Positions 212-22,901 of a stretch of 28,245 nucleotides of DNA are shown piece by piece. The position numbers were made by a program, and so were the translations under genes. Positions within the stretch are counted from its first letter, which is position 1. Each line of letters opens with the position of its first letter. Origin of the DNA: a virus; the UHGV virus genome UHGV-0133447, one strand, 5' to 3'. The notes beneath the pieces were generated by a model. That model did no database searches, was not told the DNA's origin, and saw only the letters and a program-made list of their open reading frames with translations.

Positions 212-1948
212 TCACACAATGATGGGATTACTGAAAAAGTCGTCGATATCGCCAGAATCATCCTCATAGCCTTCGGAGGCACCGATTGCCATAGCGCCCG
301 CTACAATGCCGTCGATACGCCCGGTACTTTTTTTCTTGGCAAAAATTCGGTTTTCTTTCTGATCAGCCTCCGTCACTGCTGAAGCCGCATTCCAGCGAAG
401 ACAAGGGTTCGTCCTGATGATAATGACACTGTCATCAAGCAACTCTTCAAACAATTCGATGGAGTGAGGCATCCACAGCCCGGAATCTTTCGCTTTGTAA
501 TACCCTTGCCCATGAGGGATTAACGGAACAGAAACAGATGCTTCCTCAAGCTCCGGCTCAAGATATTTAATGCGATACTGGTCGAAGGCGATGGCCTTGA
601 TATCAAACTTCTGAGTCAGATCTGCAATGCGCTGGGCAACAAAGCCGTATTTCACTGCTTTGCCAGGTGTGGTGTGGATGTGACCATCTCGCTCCCAGGC
701 GTCATAAGGTACCCGGTCCGTTTTGGCCCGTTCCAGTAACGTATCTTTCGGGGTCCAGAACTCCACCAGCAACTTACGTTGTTTTGGAAAAAACAACGCC
801 AGTGCCGTCAAATCACGCGATCCGGACAGGTCTAAACCGCCATAGCATTCCTCACCTTCCAGTTCATCTGGATCAAAGCTCTCCTCACAACCCATCCAGA
901 CATCACTGCTCATCCACGGATTAGCCGCGTCAACCCACTGACAGAAGTTAAGACGTCTGACGATGCTCTCTTTCGATGGCATCCCGCGGGCCTGAGTCAC
1001 CTGCTCACGAAGATAGCTTTCTTCAAAGGTGTGACCCAGCGAAGGGTTAGCTTTCTTCCAGCAGGACTCATCCTTGAAAGGATCGTCTCCTTCATCCAGA
1101 GAACAAATGAAGGCAAAAAAGCTGTCATCTTCTATCGAACCGGCAGAAACCTTTCGGCCGTATTCGTGATAGTCATAGCAGACACTCGTTTTATCGTGCC
1201 CACTGTTGGTGATCATGAAAATCAGCGCCTGCCGACGACCTTTGGTACCGGCACGCATCATTTCAACAACCTGATTGCTTTTATGCTCGTGAACTTCATC
1301 AATAAGAGCACAATGCGGTCGCGGGCCGGACTGCCCGTCATCTGAACTGATTGGACGAAAGAAGGAACCAGACTGAAGAAAAGCCAGGTTCCATTCCTTC
1401 CCGGCACCACCTGATTTCTGAATACGTGCGGAAAGAGCTGGAGACTGATCGACCATCGCCACCGCATCACGGAAAAGGACCATTGCCTGGTCTTTCTTCG
1501 TGGCAGCGGCATAAACTTCAGCGCGTGCTTCTTTATCCGCAGTGAGACAGTAAAGCCCTATACCCGCAGACAGAGGGGATTTACCGGATCCCTTCCCGGA
1601 CTCCACATAGACCATTCGGAACCGGCGAAAACCTCTGGCGTTTTTCCAGCCAAAAATCGAACCGACGATGAAGCACTGCCATGGCAGCAACACGAAAGGC
1701 TCGCCTTCGAAATCACCACCATTGAGCTTCAGAACTTTCGCAAAATAGTCAATCGAGCGTTGCGCCGCCTCAACATCCCAGTGCAGACCACGGGCATGAC
1801 ATGACTGCAGATCGTTGAGGTGGCGCTGGCATGAGTTACGTATGTCAGGACCAGCCAGTTCTTTGCCCGAGGTTACATCCATCGCATATTGGGTTGCTGG
1901 ATCAACCGAAGAACTTATCGAGCGTGTCCTCTTCGGGGTCTTCGCCAT
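212..1948 (-). CDS. terminase large subunit (HK97-like)
   Basis: 578-aa ORF with Walker-A-like GKGSGKS and ATPase/nuclease-sized architecture. GGTGA Shine-Dalgarno 8 nt upstream of the ATG. Sits between the small terminase and portal genes. Confidence 0.9.
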   Translation of the reverse strand: MAKTPKRTRSISSSVDPATQYAMDVTSGKELAGPDIRNSCQRHLNDLQSCHARGLHWDVEAAQRSIDYFAKVLKLNGGDFEGEPFVLLPWQCFIVGSIFGWKNARGFRRFRMVYVESGKGSGKSPLSAGIGLYCLTADKEARAEVYAAATKKDQAMVLFRDAVAMVDQSPALSARIQKSGGAGKEWNLAFLQSGSFFRPISSDDGQSGPRPHCALIDEVHEHKSNQVVEMMRAGTKGRRQALIFMITNSGHDKTSVCYDYHEYGRKVSAGSIEDDSFFAFICSLDEGDDPFKDESCWKKANPSLGHTFEESYLREQVTQARGMPSKESIVRRLNFCQWVDAANPWMSSDVWMGCEESFDPDELEGEECYGGLDLSGSRDLTALALFFPKQRKLLVEFWTPKDTLLERAKTDRVPYDAWERDGHIHTTPGKAVKYGFVAQRIADLTQKFDIKAIAFDQYRIKYLEPELEEASVSVPLIPHGQGYYKAKDSGLWMPHSIELFEELLDDSVIIIRTNPCLRWNAASAVTEADQKENRIFAKKKSTGRIDGIVAGAMAIGASEGYEDDSGDIDDFFSNPIIV

Positions 1949-6493: not shown

Positions 6494-6496
6494 GGC

Positions 6497-6522
6497 CAAA
6501 GAAAAAGCCCACCGAAGTGGGC
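6497..6522 (-). terminator. intrinsic terminator (minus strand) with UUCG-type tetraloop
   Basis: Minus-strand reading ggcccac-ttcg-gtgggc followed by TTTTCTTTGG. Lies downstream of the TerB-like gene. Confidence 0.5.
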
Positions 6523-6896
6523 CTTACAGCTATCATCATTTTTTATTAGGTGTGGTGCCGGGTGCCTCCCGGTAAGTCGCCGCCAGTCCACAGACGACTC
6601 GCAATGCGCAAAAAAACATATCAGACTGGCAATGCCCCTCCGCATAGGGGGATTCACCACACGGATAATTTAGGATGTAGTCATAGGCGGCGTCAATAAC
6701 TGACACTCTGTCAAAGGCATCATTACGATGCCTTTTGCACAGTGCTAATCACTGGATCTAATAAGGGGCCAGAGCAAAGCGATTACCCCGGCTACCAGCA
6801 CGCCATCAGCCAGGATTGACATCATTTTGCTGGTGAAGTCGATAGCAACCACCAGAAACAAAAGCACCCCGGCTGCGGCCCAGCGAAGTTTACCGA

Positions 6897-7453: not shown

Positions 7454-7954
7454 TTAAATAGATGAAAAATCACCATGGTACTGCCTGGAAGCAGCTACAT
7501 ACGCCCTGTGCGCTTCTTCTTTAGTGTGGAAGCGACCAAGTCGAATTTTTTTCTTTGCAATACTTATTTGCGCAATCCATTTTTTTCTATTGCGGGGGGA
7601 ATCGTTGAAATAGACCCCTTTAAGTCCAGCTGCGTTATTGCTGTGTATCCGTCGATTGCGAGTGTTCTGGTTTTGTGTGCAGAGCCTGAGATTTGTAATA
7701 CGGTTATTCAACTTGTCGCCATCAATATGATCAACAACAAGGGTTGACGGAATTTCACCGTATTTCAAGACCCAAATTATTCGGTGCACACGTATATTCT
7801 TTCCATTGAAGAATACCCTTAAATACCCAGTATCAGTCTTGACGCCAAGAGTGTCGCCAGGACTTTTACTCCCAAAAGGTGACTTGCAATAAAGGATGCC
7901 CGTAGTTTCATCGTATGAAAAAAAGTTCCTAACCGTTTCAAGAGATAGATTCAT
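7454..7954 (-). CDS. HNH homing-type endonuclease with C-terminal AP2-like DNA-binding domain
   Basis: 166 aa. HNH core VVDHIDGDKLNNRITNLRLCTQNQN. C-terminal GVYF...KKWIAQISIAKKKIRLGRFHTKEEAHRAYVAASRQYHGDF resembles AP2 domains (memory). AGGAG RBS. Gene is visibly AT-richer than its flanks. Confidence 0.8.
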   Translation of the reverse strand: MNLSLETVRNFFSYDETTGILYCKSPFGSKSPGDTLGVKTDTGYLRVFFNGKNIRVHRIIWVLKYGEIPSTLVVDHIDGDKLNNRITNLRLCTQNQNTRNRRIHSNNAAGLKGVYFNDSPRNRKKWIAQISIAKKKIRLGRFHTKEEAHRAYVAASRQYHGDFSSI

Positions 7955-8008: not shown

Positions 8009-8033
8009 CGAAAAAGGCCCGCGAATGCGAGCC
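8009..8033 (-). terminator. intrinsic terminator-like hairpin (minus strand) upstream of the HNH-AP2 gene
   Basis: Minus-strand reading ggctcgc-attc-gcgggcc (7-bp stem, one G-U pair) followed by TTTTTCG. Confidence 0.45.
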
Positions 8034-8246
8034 TGATGGATCCGCTTACTGATACGGAGCGACCAACCTAAGTTGTCGCAGATTCAAATTGTGGCCCTGC
8101 CTTTAAGTCACTTTGCGCGCAGCTGGGACATGTAGTTTTCGCATCGTGATCGGGATTCGCTTCAGACGCTGGCCCCGCAGCCATTTAAGTGCCGGTTACG
8201 TTTATCCGGCGGCTTTCGCCCGGTTAAGCCCTAAGGTAAGGGATTT

Positions 8247-8393
8247 GGTTGTGACACCAGGCCGTTACGCCTGCTTACTTCCTGCCGCTCTGTTTTGGTA
8301 TTGGCCGCCAGTAACTGCGACTCAGCCGATTTACAGGTCTTTGCGTCGGCCGGCGCTGCAGCCCACTTGAGCACATCACAACGGAAAGAGCGC
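8247..8393 (-). ncRNA. candidate structured tRNA-like element, copy A (degenerate)
   Basis: Minus-strand leader gcgctctttccgttgtgat resembles the leaders at 21901 and 22159. gttgtga can pair with tcacaac about 130 nt downstream to close the element. Contains gcgccggccgacg internal motif. Region 8036-8505 has no credible ORF. Confidence 0.3.
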
Positions 8394-8505
8394 TTAGTGC
8401 ATTTAAGCCAAACCCCATGTAGGAAGCACTCTTACCTGTTGTGCGCTCCGTTTCGTGGAGCAGACGCCGCCGGAATCGCACCGGCAGAATCATCACATTG
8501 GTATA

Positions 8506-8581
8506 TGGTGCTGGTTGACGGAATCGAACCGCCGACATCCTGCTTACAAGGCAGGCGCTCTACCAGCTGAGCTAAACCAGC
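8506..8581 (-). tRNA. tRNA-Thr (anticodon UGU), phage-encoded
   Basis: Minus-strand 76-nt cloverleaf GCTGGTT-TA-GCTC-AGCTGGTA-GAGC-G-CCTGC-CTTGTAA-GCAGG-ATGTC-GGCGG-TTCGATT-CCGTC-AACCAGC-A-CCA. Acceptor 7 bp, D-loop GG, anticodon loop with U33 and A37, canonical T-loop, encoded CCA. Confidence 0.8.
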
Positions 8582-10063: not shown

Positions 10064-10089
10064 ATAAAAAAACCCGCTCGCTGGCGGGT
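10064..10089 (-). terminator. intrinsic terminator just downstream of the putative late promoter (tR'-like)
   Basis: Minus-strand reading acccgc-cagcga-gcgggt followed by seven T (complement of 10066-10072). Confidence 0.5.
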
Positions 10090-10127
10090 TAATCAACGTT
10101 GAACATACAAAGCCCATCGTTATAAAT

Positions 10128-10156
10128 AAAATTACACAAAAGCGGCAACTTTGCAA
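10128..10156 (-). promoter_or_regulatory. candidate late promoter (PR'-like) immediately downstream of Q
   Basis: Minus-strand TTGCAA (10151-10156), 17-nt spacer, TAATTT (10128-10133). About 40-60 nt upstream of the terminator at 10064-10089, analogous to the lambda PR'-tR' arrangement. Confidence 0.35.
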
Positions 10157-10172: not shown

Positions 10173-11003
10173 TTATGCGATATTTATCAAATCAGGCACC
10201 TTTGTCACACGTTTAAGCTGTGAGTCGGTATAACTCTCTTCCTCAAAGCATCTTGTAACCAGACTTTCATAGAAAGGTTTCCAGCTATATCGCCAGGTAC
10301 GTTCTGGCAGACCAGGCAGCTCAGAGAGCATACCCCTGTATGCATTCGAAGACTTAGGACGACTATAACCGCGGCCTTCACAACGTTTACACACTTTGTA
10401 GACAGGCACTCCCTGCAGCTCTGACTCTTTACGGTCCAGGGTTTTTCCCGTACCGCCACACTGGCATCGCTTGCTGATTTTCCCGGTGCCGCCACATTTG
10501 AAGCAAAGAACATGGTCAACCTCTTCCACCTGACGTTTTACTTCAAAATCCGAAGGTGACTGCCTGAGGTCTTTTGCCCATTGCGGTAATCTCATTGTGT
10601 AGTGGCTTTTTTCCACCATTGAGGTTTTTTTTATGAAGCCTGAACCAGAACACTTCCTGCAATCTACGCTGTCAGCTGCAGACGAGGCATAGTCGTTATA
10701 AGCGAACCGAGCTATTATCAGCATACACAGCGGGAACTTCTTCCCTGCTGCTTTTCTTATCGATCGAGGCGCTTTTGATTTTGCATATTCAGCCAACCAA
10801 CTGACGGATGCCTTTCTGTCGTGTTCGCTGATTCCAGCTTTACCCAAAAACATTGACAGGCCTATTCCTGCCTCTGCCTGTGTCATCCCCAGAGCCGCCA
10901 TTACATCTGTCACAGTAAGTTGCTCGCTGGCGGTTGCAAGACCGCTATCGGAAATATGCATTCCTTTGGGCGCAAAAAATTTGGGAATTGATTCAATATT
11001 CAT
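10173..11003 (-). CDS. late-gene antitermination protein Q-like (Cys-rich, zinc-binding type)
   Basis: Repeated Cys pairs CRKCSGSG / CFKCGGTGK / CQCGGTGK / CKRCEGRG. Position directly upstream of promoter plus terminator and adjacent to DUF968 resembles Qin-type Q (memory). ATG at 11003 has a GGAG RBS; the track's GTG at 11021 is an alternative start. Confidence 0.65.
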   Translation of the reverse strand: MNIESIPKFFAPKGMHISDSGLATASEQLTVTDVMAALGMTQAEAGIGLSMFLGKAGISEHDRKASVSWLAEYAKSKAPRSIRKAAGKKFPLCMLIIARFAYNDYASSAADSVDCRKCSGSGFIKKTSMVEKSHYTMRLPQWAKDLRQSPSDFEVKRQVEEVDHVLCFKCGGTGKISKRCQCGGTGKTLDRKESELQGVPVYKVCKRCEGRGYSRPKSSNAYRGMLSELPGLPERTWRYSWKPFYESLVTRCFEEESYTDSQLKRVTKVPDLINIA

Positions 11004-11021
11004 GCTCAGTACTCCATACAC

Positions 11022-20105: not shown

Positions 20106-20780
20106 ATGAAAACAATCCAGGAAATCAGGCGGTTAAACGCCAGAAAATTGCGTGATGGTGTTGGCGGTAATATTTACTTCGCCAATATGATTGATCGCGA
20201 GCCTACTCAAACCAGCCGGTTCATGGGAGATGGCGCCACTAAAAACATCGGCGATGCAATGGCAAGGCACATTGAAAAGTGTTTTGACTTACCTACTGGG
20301 TGGTTAGATCAGGAACATCAAACCACTAATGTTGCTAAAACGCCCGATGTCTCTGATACAAATAGAAATATCACCATGGTTCCGGTTATATCCTGGGTAC
20401 AAGCAGGAGCATGGACCGAAGTTGGCTATGCTGAGGTTGATTTGAATAGCACTGAAAACTATCCATGCCCTGTGCCTTGTGGGCCGATGACTTATATTCT
20501 TCGTGTTATTGGCGACTCAATGATCGACGAATATAGGCCCGGTGATATGATTTTTGTTGATCCCGAAGTTCCAGCAGTGCATGGAGATGATGTGATCGCC
20601 TTAATGCACGCTTCTGGTGAGACTACATTTAAACGGTTGATTGAAGATGCAGGACAACGCTATCTAAAAGCACTTAACTCAAATTGGCCAGAACCTTACA
20701 TCAAAATCAATGGTAATTGCTCTATCATTGGCACCGTAATTTTTTCCGGTAAACCAAGACGATACCGAACGAAAACATAA
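20106..20780 (+). CDS. cI: CI-like phage repressor (HTH plus S24 LexA-type peptidase domain)
   Basis: 224 aa. C-terminal VIGDSMIDEYRPGDMIFVD...FKRL carries the Ser/Lys S24 signature. N-terminal HTH region. Divergent from cro. Confidence 0.9.
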   Translation: MKTIQEIRRLNARKLRDGVGGNIYFANMIDREPTQTSRFMGDGATKNIGDAMARHIEKCFDLPTGWLDQEHQTTNVAKTPDVSDTNRNITMVPVISWVQAGAWTEVGYAEVDLNSTENYPCPVPCGPMTYILRVIGDSMIDEYRPGDMIFVDPEVPAVHGDDVIALMHASGETTFKRLIEDAGQRYLKALNSNWPEPYIKINGNCSIIGTVIFSGKPRRYRTKT

Positions 20781-20794
20781 CAAAGACTATTAAA

Positions 20795-20815
20795 CCTGCT
20801 TCGGCGGGTTTTTTT
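20795..20815 (+). terminator. intrinsic terminator after cI
   Basis: cctgc-ttcg-gcggg (5-bp stem with one G-U pair, UUCG loop) followed by seven T. Confidence 0.55.
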
Positions 20816-20819
20816 ACAC

Positions 20820-20848
20820 TTGACAATGTACCTCAACGGTACATAATG
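20820..20848 (+). promoter_or_regulatory. strong sigma70-like promoter with embedded operator (PL analogue driving the early-left operon)
   Basis: TTGACA (20820-20825), 16/17-nt spacer, CATAAT/ATAATG (20842-20848). The spacer contains gtacctcaacggtac, the same GTACC-N5-GGTAC operator type as in the cI/cro region. Confidence 0.55.
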
Positions 20849-20953
20849 TACCTAAAAGAAACAGCGAACAGGCAGGACGCCCACGAAGTAGCCGCCCGGG
20901 GCATATGAAGTCCGGGATGATTCGCTGACAGATAAACCAAATAGGAACAGATC

Positions 20954-21187
20954 ATGGCAAGCAAAGGCATTGAAAACCTTATCAAGGACGCATTGGCAAA
21001 CGGCTGTCATGTAGTCCGTAAAGCGCATCGCTTCGAGGTAAGCAAGAAAGGCCAAAAATCAATCACTCTTATTATTTGTGAAGATGGCACAGCTTACCGG
21101 GGAGATATTGACCTAACGATCGCCATAGCCATTCGCACTCAAAAAGAAATGCGCAGAATCCTCGGCCTGCCAGCCAAGGCAAGTTAA
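20954..21187 (+). CDS. hypothetical early protein (77 aa)
   Basis: First ORF after the PL-like promoter; AGGA about 8 nt upstream. No family recognised. Confidence 0.45.
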   Translation: MASKGIENLIKDALANGCHVVRKAHRFEVSKKGQKSITLIICEDGTAYRGDIDLTIAIAIRTQKEMRRILGLPAKAS

Positions 21188-21900
21188 TTACCACAGGTGT
21201 CTTCGGGAGGGGTTGCGGAGCTGGATTGACCACCAGCAACAGAAACTCACCCGACATACAGCAGCCGTTTAGCCCACGGCGTCGGGGGTCCAGTAGACCT
21301 GGATTAATACTGTAGGGGTTGTGCCGGTTGGTCGCCGGCGCCCCGCCCGAAGATTCCTGATCGAACATGGCGAAAGCCGACAGCGTTGAAGGCGATTTTC
21401 TCGGTTTGCGCGCTAAACAATAGCGGGGGTGAAATCGGGGCGGAGAAGCAGAATCCGCGATGTCGGGACTTGATACTTCCGGCCAGACCAACAAGCCGAA
21501 TGATCGCGTAACGGTCCTTTGCATCTGCCCCGGCGAGGTGGCGCCGCCGGACCGGGGCAGATGAATCGTACACAACATGAAAGCGCATTCCATCTTCATC
21601 CGTCGTGGGGACTGGTTTGTAACTGAAGGAGTGCGCTTCCAGTTGTGAACGGCAATATTCACGACCGTTGTATGGCACATGCAGCGTTAGCAGCCCGGAT
21701 GGTTCCCTTGAAGTTCCATGCGCTATCCGGACAACTGGAATGTGCAAGCCAAGTGTTTCAGGCACGACGTGCGCCCCACCAGCGCGGCGAAAAGGTGTGA
21801 CCCCCGGGAAGAGTCCGGGACACAACAGGAAAGAGTACTGAAGATGCCAGGAAACGCCCTACCGCCAGGCAGATAGACGGGTTATCCCGCAAGGGGTGGC

Positions 21901-22043
21901 GGCAGTGCTCTTACCGTTGTGGTGTAGCTCAAATGGATAGAGCGCCCCTTATGTGGGGAGTTGAGCACTAACCAATGTTCGCAACACAGGTTATCTCATG
22001 CGGCCGGCCGGACGTTATGCGGGTTCAAATCCCGTCACCACAG
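21901..22043 (+). ncRNA. candidate tRNA-like structured element, copy B1
   Basis: Leader ggcagtgctcttaccgttgtggt. TGTGGTG (21918-21924) pairs with CACCACA (22036-22042). D-arm-like GCTC-AAATGGATA-GAGC. T-arm-like GCGGG-TTCAAAT-CCCGT (22019-22035). About 60 extra nt between the anticodon-like region and the T-arm. No encoded CCA. Confidence 0.3.
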
Positions 22044-22080
22044 CGCACAACGATGAGGGCATTGACGAGCAAGGCACAGA

Positions 22081-22099
22081 GTCTGGTTCGATTCCAGAC
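22081..22099 (+). other. tRNA T-arm-like hairpin (loop TTCGATT)
   Basis: gtctgg-ttcgatt-ccagac, a 6-bp stem with a loop identical to the tRNA-Thr T-loop at 8506-8581. Confidence 0.4.
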
Positions 22100-22138
22100 G
22101 CCAGGATAGCTCTATATCTGGTGATGGGCAGGGAAAAG

Positions 22139-22155
22139 GTCCGTTCGATTCGGAC
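22139..22155 (+). other. tRNA T-arm-like hairpin (loop TTCGATT)
   Basis: gtccg-ttcgatt-cggac, a 5-bp stem with the same loop sequence. Confidence 0.4.
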
Positions 22156-22158
22156 ACC

Positions 22159-22290
22159 GGCAGTGCTCTCTTCGTTGTGGTAATTGCGGCTATGCGCACG
22201 TGACGAGCCAACCCGTTCATGGAATGCGTTTCCGGGCAGTGTACGTCGCCGGTTATGGCTTAACCCGGCAGGTGGAGGCACCACCGCCAC
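22159..22290 (+). ncRNA. candidate structured element, copy B2
   Basis: Leader ggcagtgctctcttcgttgtggt matches the 21901 leader at 20 of 23 positions. gttgtgg (22173-22179) can pair with ccacaac (22284-22290). Internal cgtcgccgg motif. Confidence 0.25.
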
Positions 22291-22529
22291 AACCTAGTTA
22301 ACTGTGCTGTGTGTAGTCTTGGCGGTTATCCAGTTTTCCACTATCCAAAGGAGGAAGAGGATAACGTTCTGATGGATAACCGCCCTTTTTACACAATACA
22401 AAAGAGCATCACCGGGCGACGGGCTCATTACCCAATCCACCCGGGCGGCGTCCTAACCGCAGGTGCTCTTCTGTGTTGTGTACGGAGAAATTCCCGGCGG
22501 TGGCAGCCGCCTTTCGAGAGGGTAAAACC

Positions 22530-22901
22530 ATGAGTAATGATCGCATGACAGTAGTGCCCGATTTCCTGGGTGAACTGGACGCCGGCGTATTCATGAACAA
22601 GATTGCGGCGGCTCTTAATACCACCGCGCTCGGCGTTCTGAACAACGGCAACAAAGGCAAGGTTGTCCTCACCTTTGATTTTGAGCGTATGGGCAACTCT
22701 GTTGAAGAGAAGCGCGTCAAGATTAAGCACAAGCTGAACTACAGCACCCCAACTCCCCGCGGCAAAGCGTCGGAGGAGGACACCACCGAAACACCAATGT
22801 GGGTTAACAAAGGTGGCAAGCTCACAATCCTGCAGGAGGATCAGGGGCAACTCTTCGGTATCACCGGCGCGGTGGACGGAAAGCTTAAAGCGGCTCAGTG
22901 A
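22530..22901 (+). CDS. conserved phage early-region protein (possibly YfdP-like)
   Basis: 123 aa from ATG 22530 (GAGAGGG upstream); the track ORF starts earlier at 22473. Precedes the DUF2303-like and HD-domain genes, as in the CPS-53 yfdPQR block (memory, uncertain). Confidence 0.5.
   Translation: MSNDRMTVVPDFLGELDAGVFMNKIAAALNTTALGVLNNGNKGKVVLTFDFERMGNSVEEKRVKIKHKLNYSTPTPRGKASEEDTTETPMWVNKGGKLTILQEDQGQLFGITGAVDGKLKAAQ

Follow-up and report, generated by a model that had tools for sequence, protein, structure and literature searches.

The virus genome UHGV-0133447, examined here over one stretch of 28,245 nucleotides (hereafter the window), comprises a lambdoid prophage in which two oppositely oriented operons each carry an array of structured noncoding RNAs in the untranslated leader. 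Three elements are at issue: B1 and B2, which lie in the leader of the early-left operon upstream of its plus-strand genes, and C, which lies in the late operon (Table 1). An initial annotation, made from the sequence alone, described them as one family of three related tRNA-like elements, each in the sense orientation of its operon. The orientation holds, B1 and B2 lying downstream of the early-left promoter PL on the plus strand and C downstream of the antiterminator gene Q on the minus strand; the family holds for the flanks, where the copies share a spacer hairpin and a closing helix. The bodies are not homologous, covariance models built from B2 (R1) and from B1 (R2) finding neither of the other copies, and the GCCGGCCG-type motif put forward as a further common feature, although present in sequence, falls in non-equivalent helices of B1, B2 and C. 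The three copies are three different conserved structured RNAs sharing only a junction module.

The array downstream of PL comprises, in order, the spacer hairpin U0, a structured segment, the hairpin U1, B1, the hairpin U2, B2, a terminator, the hairpin U3 and the first gene of the operon, and the array downstream of Q and PR' comprises tRNA-Thr, the hairpin UC, C and, further on, STnc100. PL, the sole sigma-70-like site within 20700-22600, is the predicted promoter of the transcript carrying U0-B1-B2-U3. Some 1340 nt between the 77-codon open reading frame (ORF) and the gene at 22530 hold no credible gene; the minus-strand ORFs 21072-21680 and 21304-21825 give no PHROG match, and the former, the sole one scanned against Pfam, gives no Pfam match either. 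The region 21790-22530 (741 nt) is far more structured than its shuffles (z -6.85). The hairpin/B1/B2 region is 99% identical to Klebsiella phage Kp4866-6.

Table 1. Coordinates of the spacer hairpins, RNAs, genes and signals in the window
Feature	Coordinates	Strand	Remarks
U0, spacer hairpin	21569-21649 (5' arm 21569-21593, 3' arm 21626-21649)	+	19/20 pairs; -35.7 kcal/mol, z -4.7
U1, spacer hairpin	21819-21923	+	5' arm CACAACAGGAAAGAGUACUG, 3' arm the B1 leader motif; 18/20 pairs; -42.1 kcal/mol, z -2.9
B1, tRNA-derived RNA	21916-22044	+	Rfam tRNA 40 bits; 14 distinct homologues
U2, spacer hairpin	22046-22181	+	90-nt loop; 18/20 pairs; -58.6 kcal/mol, z -4.5
B2, STnc100-like RNA core	22174-22293	+	8-bp closing helix, four arms
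Long-stem intrinsic terminator	22310-22400	+	closes the array; GGCGGUUAUCCA...UGGAUAACCGCC then CUUUUU; inverted repeat I4
U3, spacer hairpin	22390-22482	+	directly 5' of the sb37-like gene 22530-22901; 18/20 pairs; -45.5 kcal/mol, z -5.8; inverted repeat I2
UC, spacer hairpin	8376-8453	-	5' arm CACAACAGGUAAGAGUGCUU, 3' arm the C leader motif; 18/20 pairs; -26.1 kcal/mol, z -2.3
C, multi-hairpin RNA	8248-8382	-	closing helix, three hairpins, single-stranded CCAAUACCAAAACAGA, 3' domain
STnc100 (Rfam RF02076)	6494-6691	-	100.7 bits; promoter-like site 6696-6667, terminator 6525-6504
tRNA-Thr(UGU), genuine	8506-8581	-	ARAGORN; Rfam tRNA 74 bits; heads the late-operon RNA array
cI-like repressor gene	20106-20780	+	terminator follows
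Strong PL-type early-left promoter	20820-20847	+	TTGACA / 16 nt / CATAAT, palindromic operators; after the cI-like repressor gene and its terminator
77-codon ORF, phrog_12911	20954-21187	+	without Pfam or PDB relative
sb37-like gene (22530-22901, PHROG 204), then DUF2303 gene	from 22530	+	sb37-like gene is the first protein gene of the operon
Q antiterminator gene (PF03589)	10173-11021	-	upstream of C
tR'-like terminator, then DNA methylase gene	3' of Q	-	in transcription order
HNH endonuclease gene (7454-7954), TerB-like gene, STnc100, lysis genes	3' of C	-	late operon, order as listed

The junction module and its spread

The leader motif GYGCTCTYWYCGTTGTGR of the initial annotation occurs exactly at 21905-21922(+), 22163-22180(+) and 8376-8393(-), and with up to three mismatches it gives 5 matches against 0.39 expected, a number reached by 0 of 100 shuffles. 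Within an imperfect hairpin some 20 bp long, the motif constitutes the 3' arm; the complementary 5' arm, lying upstream, had been missed together with two further units, U0 and U3. The consensus reads nnAGUGCUCUyyyCGUUGUG for the 3' arm and RCACAAC(A)GGUAAGAGCAYUG for the 5' arm, with a loop of 7-151 nt; at 18-20 bp the helix spans about two duplex turns and contains a conserved bulged A plus a central mismatch. The window harbors five such hairpins with 18-19 of 20 positions paired (0.065 expected; five were reached in 0/200 shuffles), all of them the minimum-free-energy fold of their own segment.

The pairing is maintained across phages. To keep the leader sequence out of the selection, a comparison set was assembled from leaders located through patterns internal to the B1, B2 and C homologues. 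At least 15 of 20 pairs form in 91 of its 101 distinct arm pairs, and the mean is 18.2 pairs; random reassignment of the arms lowers this to 15.7, with a maximum of 16.25 over 500 shuffles. Hairpin positions 7, 8, 10, 13, 16 and 19 each accommodate two or three different Watson-Crick pairs, as exemplified by the compensatory change of GUGUUCUC/GAGAACAU in one locus (L129) relative to GUGCUCUC/GAGGGCAU in the window. Mismatches counted on the sense strand comprise 150 G.U against 42 A.C, an excess that indicates a helix read on that strand. Of the distinct contexts, 18/20, 59/68 and 83/88 have the long ORFs of the downstream 3 kb on the strand of the array (160/176 in total, opposite in 2), and the ORFs upstream of the arrays are often divergent, which places the arrays at the starts of transcription units. 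The function at the RNA level favored from the outset is supported by the G.U excess, by the same-strand ORFs downstream and by compensatory changes in all three bodies.

Read as passive structural spacers, the hairpins would deny Rho loading, block exonucleases and let neighboring RNAs fold independently, with no specific cleavage. The structure of the 741-nt region, the compensated pairing and the presence of hairpins before mRNAs would all fit such a role, which leaves unexplained the strong sequence conservation of both arms (AGUGCUCU / AGAGCAYU) as well as the fixed purine-rich 5' arm, pyrimidine-rich 3' arm, bulged A and mismatch across genera; it appears quite unlikely. The 5' arms also invite comparison with targets of the small RNA (sRNA) GcvB, since the CACAACA found in U0, U1, UC and the consensus of the hairpin family is the stated GcvB target consensus (PMC4104026). 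The units would then serve as sponges that match the R1 seed of GcvB, as in the prophage anti-sRNA AgvB. Nevertheless, CACAACA is predicted to be base-paired, its final A is the bulged base of the hairpin and is missing from U2 and U3, and AgvB is a 51-60-nt terminator-bearing sRNA of unrelated sequence, without an Rfam AgvB match among the elements, which makes the sponge reading extremely improbable.

A scan of viral contigs with the leader motif retrieved at least 120 loci. The RNAs (hereafter cargos) and signals following the junction include (i) tRNA-Arg(UCU) and tRNA(CAU); (ii) B1, B2, C and STnc100-like RNAs; (iii) about a dozen other RNA types, with a very common GGUGAAU...CACCAC type and several tRNA-like RNAs bearing true T-arms; and (iv) ribosome-binding sites of protein genes, the situation of U3 in the window. 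Conversely, one cargo may follow different hairpins, as B2 does from phage to phage, the hairpin ahead of it being of the U0, U1 or U2 type. One hairpin may likewise precede different cargos: other phages have a B1 or B2 homologue after the U1 unit, and after the U2 unit SPN9TCW has tRNA-Arg(UCU), phiNP a C-type RNA and Stx2a_1447 yet another cargo. Bodies that are not homologous replace one another behind a common junction.

This exchange raises the question of joints acting on DNA, whereby the GTTGTG/CACAAC flanks, or a single-stranded hairpin of attC type, would swap RNA-gene cassettes. Cargo and hairpin types are indeed reassorted exactly at GTTGTGG and CACAAC, the extrahelical bases and the variable loop are superficially attC-like, and the HNH endonuclease gene 7454-7954(-) adjoins the late array. 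However, GTTGTGG and ACACAAC violate the attC cores GTTRRRY and RYYYAAC, no integron integrase was found in the loci read or the window ORFs examined, and the G.U over A.C bias, the sense orientation and the location of tRNA 5' ends at the junction point to RNA; in addition, mosaic phages are expected to reassort at any conserved sequence. A recombination device is considered very unlikely.

The module occurs in lambdoid, P1/P7, Stx and Klebsiella phages across the Enterobacterales, in hundreds of enterobacterial phages, including the Stx2 prophages of O157:H7. Among 5426 complete E. coli genomes, 846 contain one unit; 237 of its occurrences are plasmid-borne, and the annotation gives no feature for it. 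A search limited to a single genome for each species gave 97 motif matches, 47 of them accompanied by the hairpin partner, and of the 40 among these with a title shown 37 are Enterobacterales; the 50 matches lacking the partner, mostly in unrelated phyla, provide the chance background. The prophages Qin and DLP12 of K-12 display no spacer hairpin of this type.

The ban-operon leader of P7 (dam, Op(ban), tRNA-Asn, tRNA-Thr, terB) is full of units and cargos, none of them annotated, and carries the UC unit directly after its own tRNA-Thr. The window segment 6897-8581(-), comprising the methylase gene, tRNA-Thr, hairpin, TerB-like gene and STnc100, is syntenic with this P7 locus (L334; dam, tRNA-Asn, tRNA-Thr, hairpins, terB and an STnc100-like RNA), relative to which the HNH endonuclease gene 7454-7954 is inserted in the window. 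The same P7 locus contains, at 2523-2607, an unannotated class II tRNA-like gene with a UGA anticodon loop, a long variable arm and a GCCA end, scoring 46.6 bits on the tRNA-Sec model (threshold 47).

The individual hairpins display features of their own. U0 belongs to the repeat families D1, D2 and I12 and overlaps the ORF 21072-21680(-). The U2 loop comprises two T-arm-like hairpins (GUCUGGUUCGAUUCCAGAC and GUCCGUUCGAUUCGGAC) plus a variable hairpin. Isolated T-arm-like hairpins of the GGUUCGAUUCC type thus lie at 22078-22096(+) and 22138-22156(+) in this loop, and another at 8472-8497(-), just after tRNA-Thr; the U2 pair is kept in SPN9TCW, phiNP, Stx2a_1447 and others, with a variable covarying hairpin between its members. 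The terminator closing the early array, overlooked by a simple terminator scan because its loop exceeds 8 nt, has a U-tract that runs into the 5' arm of U3, and its module follows the last cargo in phiNP, SPN9TCW and Stx2a_1447.

Protein coding was also considered. The elements are not intact protein-coding genes, given the absence of credible family matches and the frame-breaking indels that distinguish homologues, and the sole family match, that of ORF 22035-22220(-) over the U2 loop with phrog_36251 ('unknown function', E 1e-10), was rejected. The frame is broken there because homologues differ by hairpins of 26, 19, 23 and 24 nt, and the probable source of phrog_36251 is erroneous ORF calling over a conserved RNA element; it exemplifies some 'hypothetical protein' families of such regions that appear to be artefacts.

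Three RNA bodies with separate affinities

Rfam at gathering thresholds, applied to 20 loci, recovers true tRNAs only, and the AgvB, AsxR, C4, isrK and YrlA models do not match the elements. The view that no described RNA family has this signature stands for the hairpin module and the C type and falls for B2, a relative of STnc100/PasD, and for B1, which lies above the Rfam tRNA threshold. The spacer hairpin module, the B1 and C families and the cassette architecture are absent from Rfam 15 and were not found in the searchable literature. Conservation and compensatory changes, looked for in homologues, are present in B1, B2 and C.

B1 threads onto the tRNA cloverleaf with extra nucleotides, as first described: the Rfam tRNA model scores 40 bits at 21918-22043, for a gathering threshold of 29, with 68 nt replacing the 15-nt core of the anticodon arm. 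ARAGORN, proposed earlier as a check, makes no call on B1. The 14 distinct homologues derive from IMG/VR contigs and from Cronobacter phage JK004, whose copy reaches 27.7 bits on the tRNA model, just under threshold. The consensus comprises (i) a 9-bp acceptor-like helix, (ii) a D-arm, (iii) a T-arm and (iv) a conserved three-helix insert of about 55 nt in the variable region. The hairpin at the anticodon position has a loop of 4-6 nt in 14/14 variants and so provides no canonical 5-bp/7-nt anticodon arm. A helix UGAG/CUCA encloses a hairpin with a 7-nt loop that reads NUCAUAA in most variants, a look-alike of a CAU anticodon loop; the inserted loop of the window copy reads UUCGCAA, with a compensated change in the stem. 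A small hairpin with a GGCC loop accounts for the GCCGGCCG palindrome noticed in B1.

In the B1 alignment 99.8% of the cells are paired and 8 pairs show double changes, values that 0 of 500 shuffles reach; helices 1, 2 and 7 (acceptor, D-arm and T-arm) are 99-100% paired, with two covarying pairs in the T-arm. Model R2 gives 146 bits on B1, 31-37 bits on other insert-bearing tRNA-like cargos and 20-32 bits on true tRNAs. The long-range helix proposed for B1 exists with another partner: in the homologues GTTGTGGTG pairs with CACCACA(A/G)C directly after the T-arm, and the CACAAC at 22046 belongs to the following hairpin, U2, not to the closing helix of B1. B1 has no encoded CCA.

Compared to phage tRNAs, B1 preserves the acceptor helix, a D-arm with GG and a T-arm with UUCAAAU, but displays the 4-6-nt loop at the anticodon site and the three-helix insert. 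The junction module itself precedes true tRNA-Arg(UCU) and tRNA(CAU), and the P7 ban-operon leader carries units around its own tRNAs; Stx phages possess the tRNA cluster ileZ-argN-argO, and P1/P7 possess tRNA-Asn, -Thr and -Ile. Relics of a former phage tRNA cluster, that is, pseudogenes with random insertions, could explain why B1 is devoid of an anticodon loop at the canonical position, why ARAGORN rejects it and why T-arm-like fragments are scattered in hairpin loops. Covariation largely refutes such decay, since 14 (B1), at least 65 (B2) and 37 (C) variants from many genera retain the inserts and show compensatory changes in them, and the frequency of the unit among complete E. coli genomes further argues against it, so that junk is a highly improbable reading. 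The conserved, covarying insert rather identifies B1 as a tRNA derivative with an insert under selection.

B2 was retrieved in at least 120 viral contigs, with 84 distinct extracts including the upstream flank and 65 for the element alone. The long-range helix GTTGTGGT/GCCACAAC is present as predicted, 98.2% of the cells are paired and 3 pairs show double changes. The central arm varies extremely in both length and sequence, and the 3' arm reads GGUGG-AGGCA-CCACC.

The core of the window STnc100, at 6550-6662(-), shares the architecture of B2. Both comprise (i) a 5' GUGGU(G/A)AAU followed by a hairpin, (ii) the closing helix, (iii) an identical GAGGCAC loop in the 3' hairpin on a covarying stem, CCGG/CCGG versus GGUG/CACC, and (iv) a terminator about 20 nt downstream. 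Model R1 detects the STnc100 core of the window with 33 bits (E 2e-7) and the STnc100-like RNA of P7 (2718-2837), a region that is itself a partial Rfam STnc100 match of 43 bits, with 52 bits; the Rfam STnc100 model gives no match at 22174-22293 at E up to 10. The two differ in setting, STnc100 having its own promoter-like site whereas B2, with its hypervariable central arm, sits behind a spacer hairpin in the PL leader, where a sigma-70-like scan found no promoter-like site between PL and B2. STnc100/PasD are described as prophage sRNAs in operons near Q (bioRxiv 10.64898/2026.05.13.724894), and the role of STnc100 itself is described as unclear (PMC12370729). On its sequence and predicted fold, B2 is assigned as a divergent member of the STnc100/PasD lineage.

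An antisense action of B2 on the hairpins was rejected, the best upstream duplex (-28.9) being no better than the downstream control (-29.7) in 83 contexts. In the window, the central arm of B2 (22219-22245) is complementary to the 5' arm of U0 (21567-21593) at -30.4 kcal/mol (z -4.4), nearly equal to the own partner of U0; this complementarity is confined to close relatives.

C represents a third RNA type, found in 86 viral contigs as 37 distinct variants. Its long-range helix GTTGTGA / TCACAAC is present as initially described, 96.7% of the cells are paired and 6 pairs show double changes, which 0/500 shuffles reach. No Rfam model matches C. Of the parts of a tRNA, B2 and C show only an acceptor-like helix and a 3' hairpin without T-loop sequence, and the tRNA model gives no match to either at E 10.

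Proposed processing of the arrays and its rivals

The whole is best explained, with a probability of about one half, as a processed leader array of noncoding RNA genes, in which we infer cleavage from the placement of the hairpins. Each array would be transcribed as a single leader and then cut into separate stable RNAs, in the manner of tRNA and rRNA operons. Each cargo is closed by an acceptor-like helix GUUGUGG...CCACAAC and separated from its neighbor by a spacer hairpin. The 5' arm of the hairpin immediately adjoins the 3' terminus of the RNA before it (in P7, the ...GGCACCA of tRNA-Thr), and the 3' arm ends 2-3 nt inside the next one, the mature tRNA 5' end lying at GTT|GTGG in SPN9TCW (tRNA-Arg) and in another locus (L081). 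A cut in the stem would therefore free both neighbors.

The closest parallel to the hairpin is provided by the processing stalk of E. coli 16S rRNA. In rrnH, the 16S 3' flank GCAGTGCTCACACAG pairs with the leader TGTGTGGGCACT through the duplex GGGCACU/AGUGCUC, and nine nucleotides, GCAGTGCTC, are identical in the rrn stalk and the window leaders GGCAGTGCTCT. The two systems display the same order of a boxA-like motif, a G/U-rich strand closing a long-range helix and the complementary strand, with the duplex GRGCAYU/AGUGCUC in common and in the same strand polarity. They differ in that the rrn stalk encloses its RNA, whereas here the conserved duplex forms a local hairpin between two RNAs, often with a broken boxA core. 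In the 16S stalk, the RNase III cut falls at a distance of a few base pairs from the AGUGCUC duplex. [quoted passage not shown] By analogy, RNase III would cut the spacer hairpin, whose core GAGCAYU/AGUGCUC appears to copy the 16S stalk duplex, and RNase P would trim the acceptor-like 5' end; where the cargo is a true tRNA, this end falls within the base of the hairpin by 2-3 nt. An acceptor helix abutting a T-arm or T-arm-like hairpin is the shape recognized by RNase P; B1 has this geometry, and B2 and C resemble it loosely through a 3' hairpin set directly against the closing helix. Once released, the RNAs would work in trans: the true tRNAs would serve translation, RNAs of the B1 type would mimic tRNAs, and those of the B2/STnc100 type would be small regulatory RNAs.

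Several points weigh against processing. The nine-nucleotide identity with the rrn stalk is suggestive only, as a strong positive consensus in sequence is described as absent for RNase III (PMC1540722). A single GUUGUG is claimed both by the hairpin base CACAAC/GUUGUG and by the closing helix of the cargo. The closing helix never varies in the B1, B2 and C alignments, so that covariation gives no information on it. In addition, most cargos carry no encoded 3' CCA, recognition of B2 and C by RNase P is a conjecture in view of their missing T-loop and D-loop sequences, and the hairpins also precede protein genes, so that the release of tRNA-like RNAs is not their only role.

The main rival takes the resemblance to rrn operons as one of antitermination. 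The leader motif would represent a boxA, the NusB/NusE site, followed by a boxC-like GUUGUGG, and a Nus complex loaded there would read through the terminator 22310-22400 and keep Rho off, as in rRNA operons and CRISPR arrays. The commonest leader variant, GTGCTCTTTCC, contains TGCTCTTT, which is identical to the E. coli rrn boxA TGCTCTTTAACAA over its first 8 nt; as in rrn, a long-range helix closes a structured RNA and takes its 5' strand from the GUUGUGG that comes next; the units lie at operon starts and upstream of a terminator; no N-like gene was recognized in the PL operon; and boxA keeps Rho off long untranslated RNAs (PMC7665894). In the window the core reads GCTCTT in B1 (GTGCTCTTACC) and C (GCGCTCTTTCC) and GCTCTC in B2 (GTGCTCTCTTC). 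Among the 91 unbiased leaders, however, TGCTCTTT occurs in 13 and GCTCTT in 20, and the frequent variants GTGCGCTTCCAG, GCGCCGTTTCCG, GTGTTCTCTTCG and GTGCCTTTCTCG break the core while being compensated in the opposite arm. Moreover, boxA is bound single-stranded and the motif is predicted to be paired in a 20-bp helix, five copies in 28 kb exceed the need of a persistent polymerase modification, and the rrn stalk, but not boxA, accounts for the conserved AG ahead of the core. Antitermination of this type is thus judged unlikely.

Known systems offer precedents and parallels for the proposed arrays. Species 1 and 2 of T4 are stable phage RNAs of 120-137 nt, located directly after tRNA-Arg in the tRNA cluster (X03016.1), species 1 ending in a T-arm plus an acceptor-like strand and scoring 13.8 bits (E 0.08) with the B1 model, with no clear relationship in sequence; T4, a virulent phage with another operon context, has no spacer hairpins of this type. 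DicF is a noncoding RNA inside the repressor-proximal early dicB operon of the lambdoid prophage Qin, a position seen in the sequence, although this 53-nt antisense RNA is unrelated in sequence to the present elements. Faubladier et al. reportedly found in 1990 that DicF is excised from the dicB operon through cleavage by RNase III and RNase E. The eukaryotic mascRNA/MALAT1 and the synthetic engineered tRNA scaffolds are comparable by analogy only: a tRNA-shaped module within a long transcript would attract RNase P and yield a stable small RNA, and B2 and related cargos similarly combine a conserved scaffold with a variable insert. The kinds involved, namely phage tRNA clusters, tRNA-like stable RNAs and prophage sRNAs processed from operons, are known already, and there is a substantial chance that the arrays constitute a distinct, widespread system.

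A more far-reaching interpretation, advanced tentatively as a possibility, sees in the arrays a cassette system for noncoding RNAs of temperate enterobacterial phages (P1/P7, Stx2, Klebsiella and Salmonella prophages). Interchangeable, often hypervariable RNAs on tRNA-like or STnc100-like scaffolds would be released by hijacked RNase III and RNase P through a hairpin mimicking the rRNA stalk, and would act as mimics, decoys or guide-like regulators in phage-host conflict; the displaced CAU anticodon-like loop of B1 would fit a role against anticodon nucleases. If processing as such is true, a short conserved hairpin marks the boundaries of hundreds of unannotated phage RNA genes and provides a simple handle for finding them, the origin of the STnc100/PasD sRNAs is explained, and a new class of tRNA-derived RNAs with conserved inserts emerges. 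The role of phage tRNA-like stable RNAs and the transcription of N-less lambdoid phages through terminator-bearing leaders would then become approachable.

Further conserved elements of the two operons

Directly 3' of PL, a stem-enclosed structure of about 70 nt at 20856-20930(+) (-24 kcal/mol, z -2.2) is kept in SfV, SfII, SfIV, ST64B, phiNP, Yersinia YeP1, Pectobacterium ZF40 and mEp237. It represents a candidate cis-acting antiterminator for an N-less operon, in a position matching that of HK022 putL. The put element of HK022 is a two-stem structure of about 70 nt just 3' of the early promoter; B1, B2 and C lie 1-1.4 kb from PL and have another form.

Compared to phiNP, the leader segment 20925-21360(+) is an insertion holding the ORF of phrog_12911, and the noncoding sequence that follows, 21360-21566(+), is homologous to positions of about 1700-1920 in a phiNP locus (L003) and probably comprises another structured RNA. 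Between U0 and U1, the conserved segment 21650-21818(+) reads GUAUGGCACAUG...GGAAUGUGCAAG...GGUGUGAC and then forms a hairpin; its homologue comes first after the promoter in SPN9TCW and Stx2a_1447. Stx2a_1447, which also carries hairpin arrays, displays an immI-type RNA immunity module at 537-738(-) of its locus (L124), 5' of an antirepressor gene, with matches to C4 antisense RNA (83.6 bits) and isrK (67 bits), as well as a weak match to the c4 a1/b1 target family (25.6 bits, gathering threshold 46.7).

In the late operon, a sub-threshold Rfam 'Trp_leader' match of 25 bits at 10064-10153(-) is actually the terminator just 3' of Q, presumably tR'. Finally, about 210 nt of further conserved noncoding sequence lie 3' of C, at 8015-8247(-), ending in an intrinsic terminator (8034-8015) and containing CCGGAUAAACGUAACCGG, which also precedes hairpins in P7 and in two other loci (L070 and L078).

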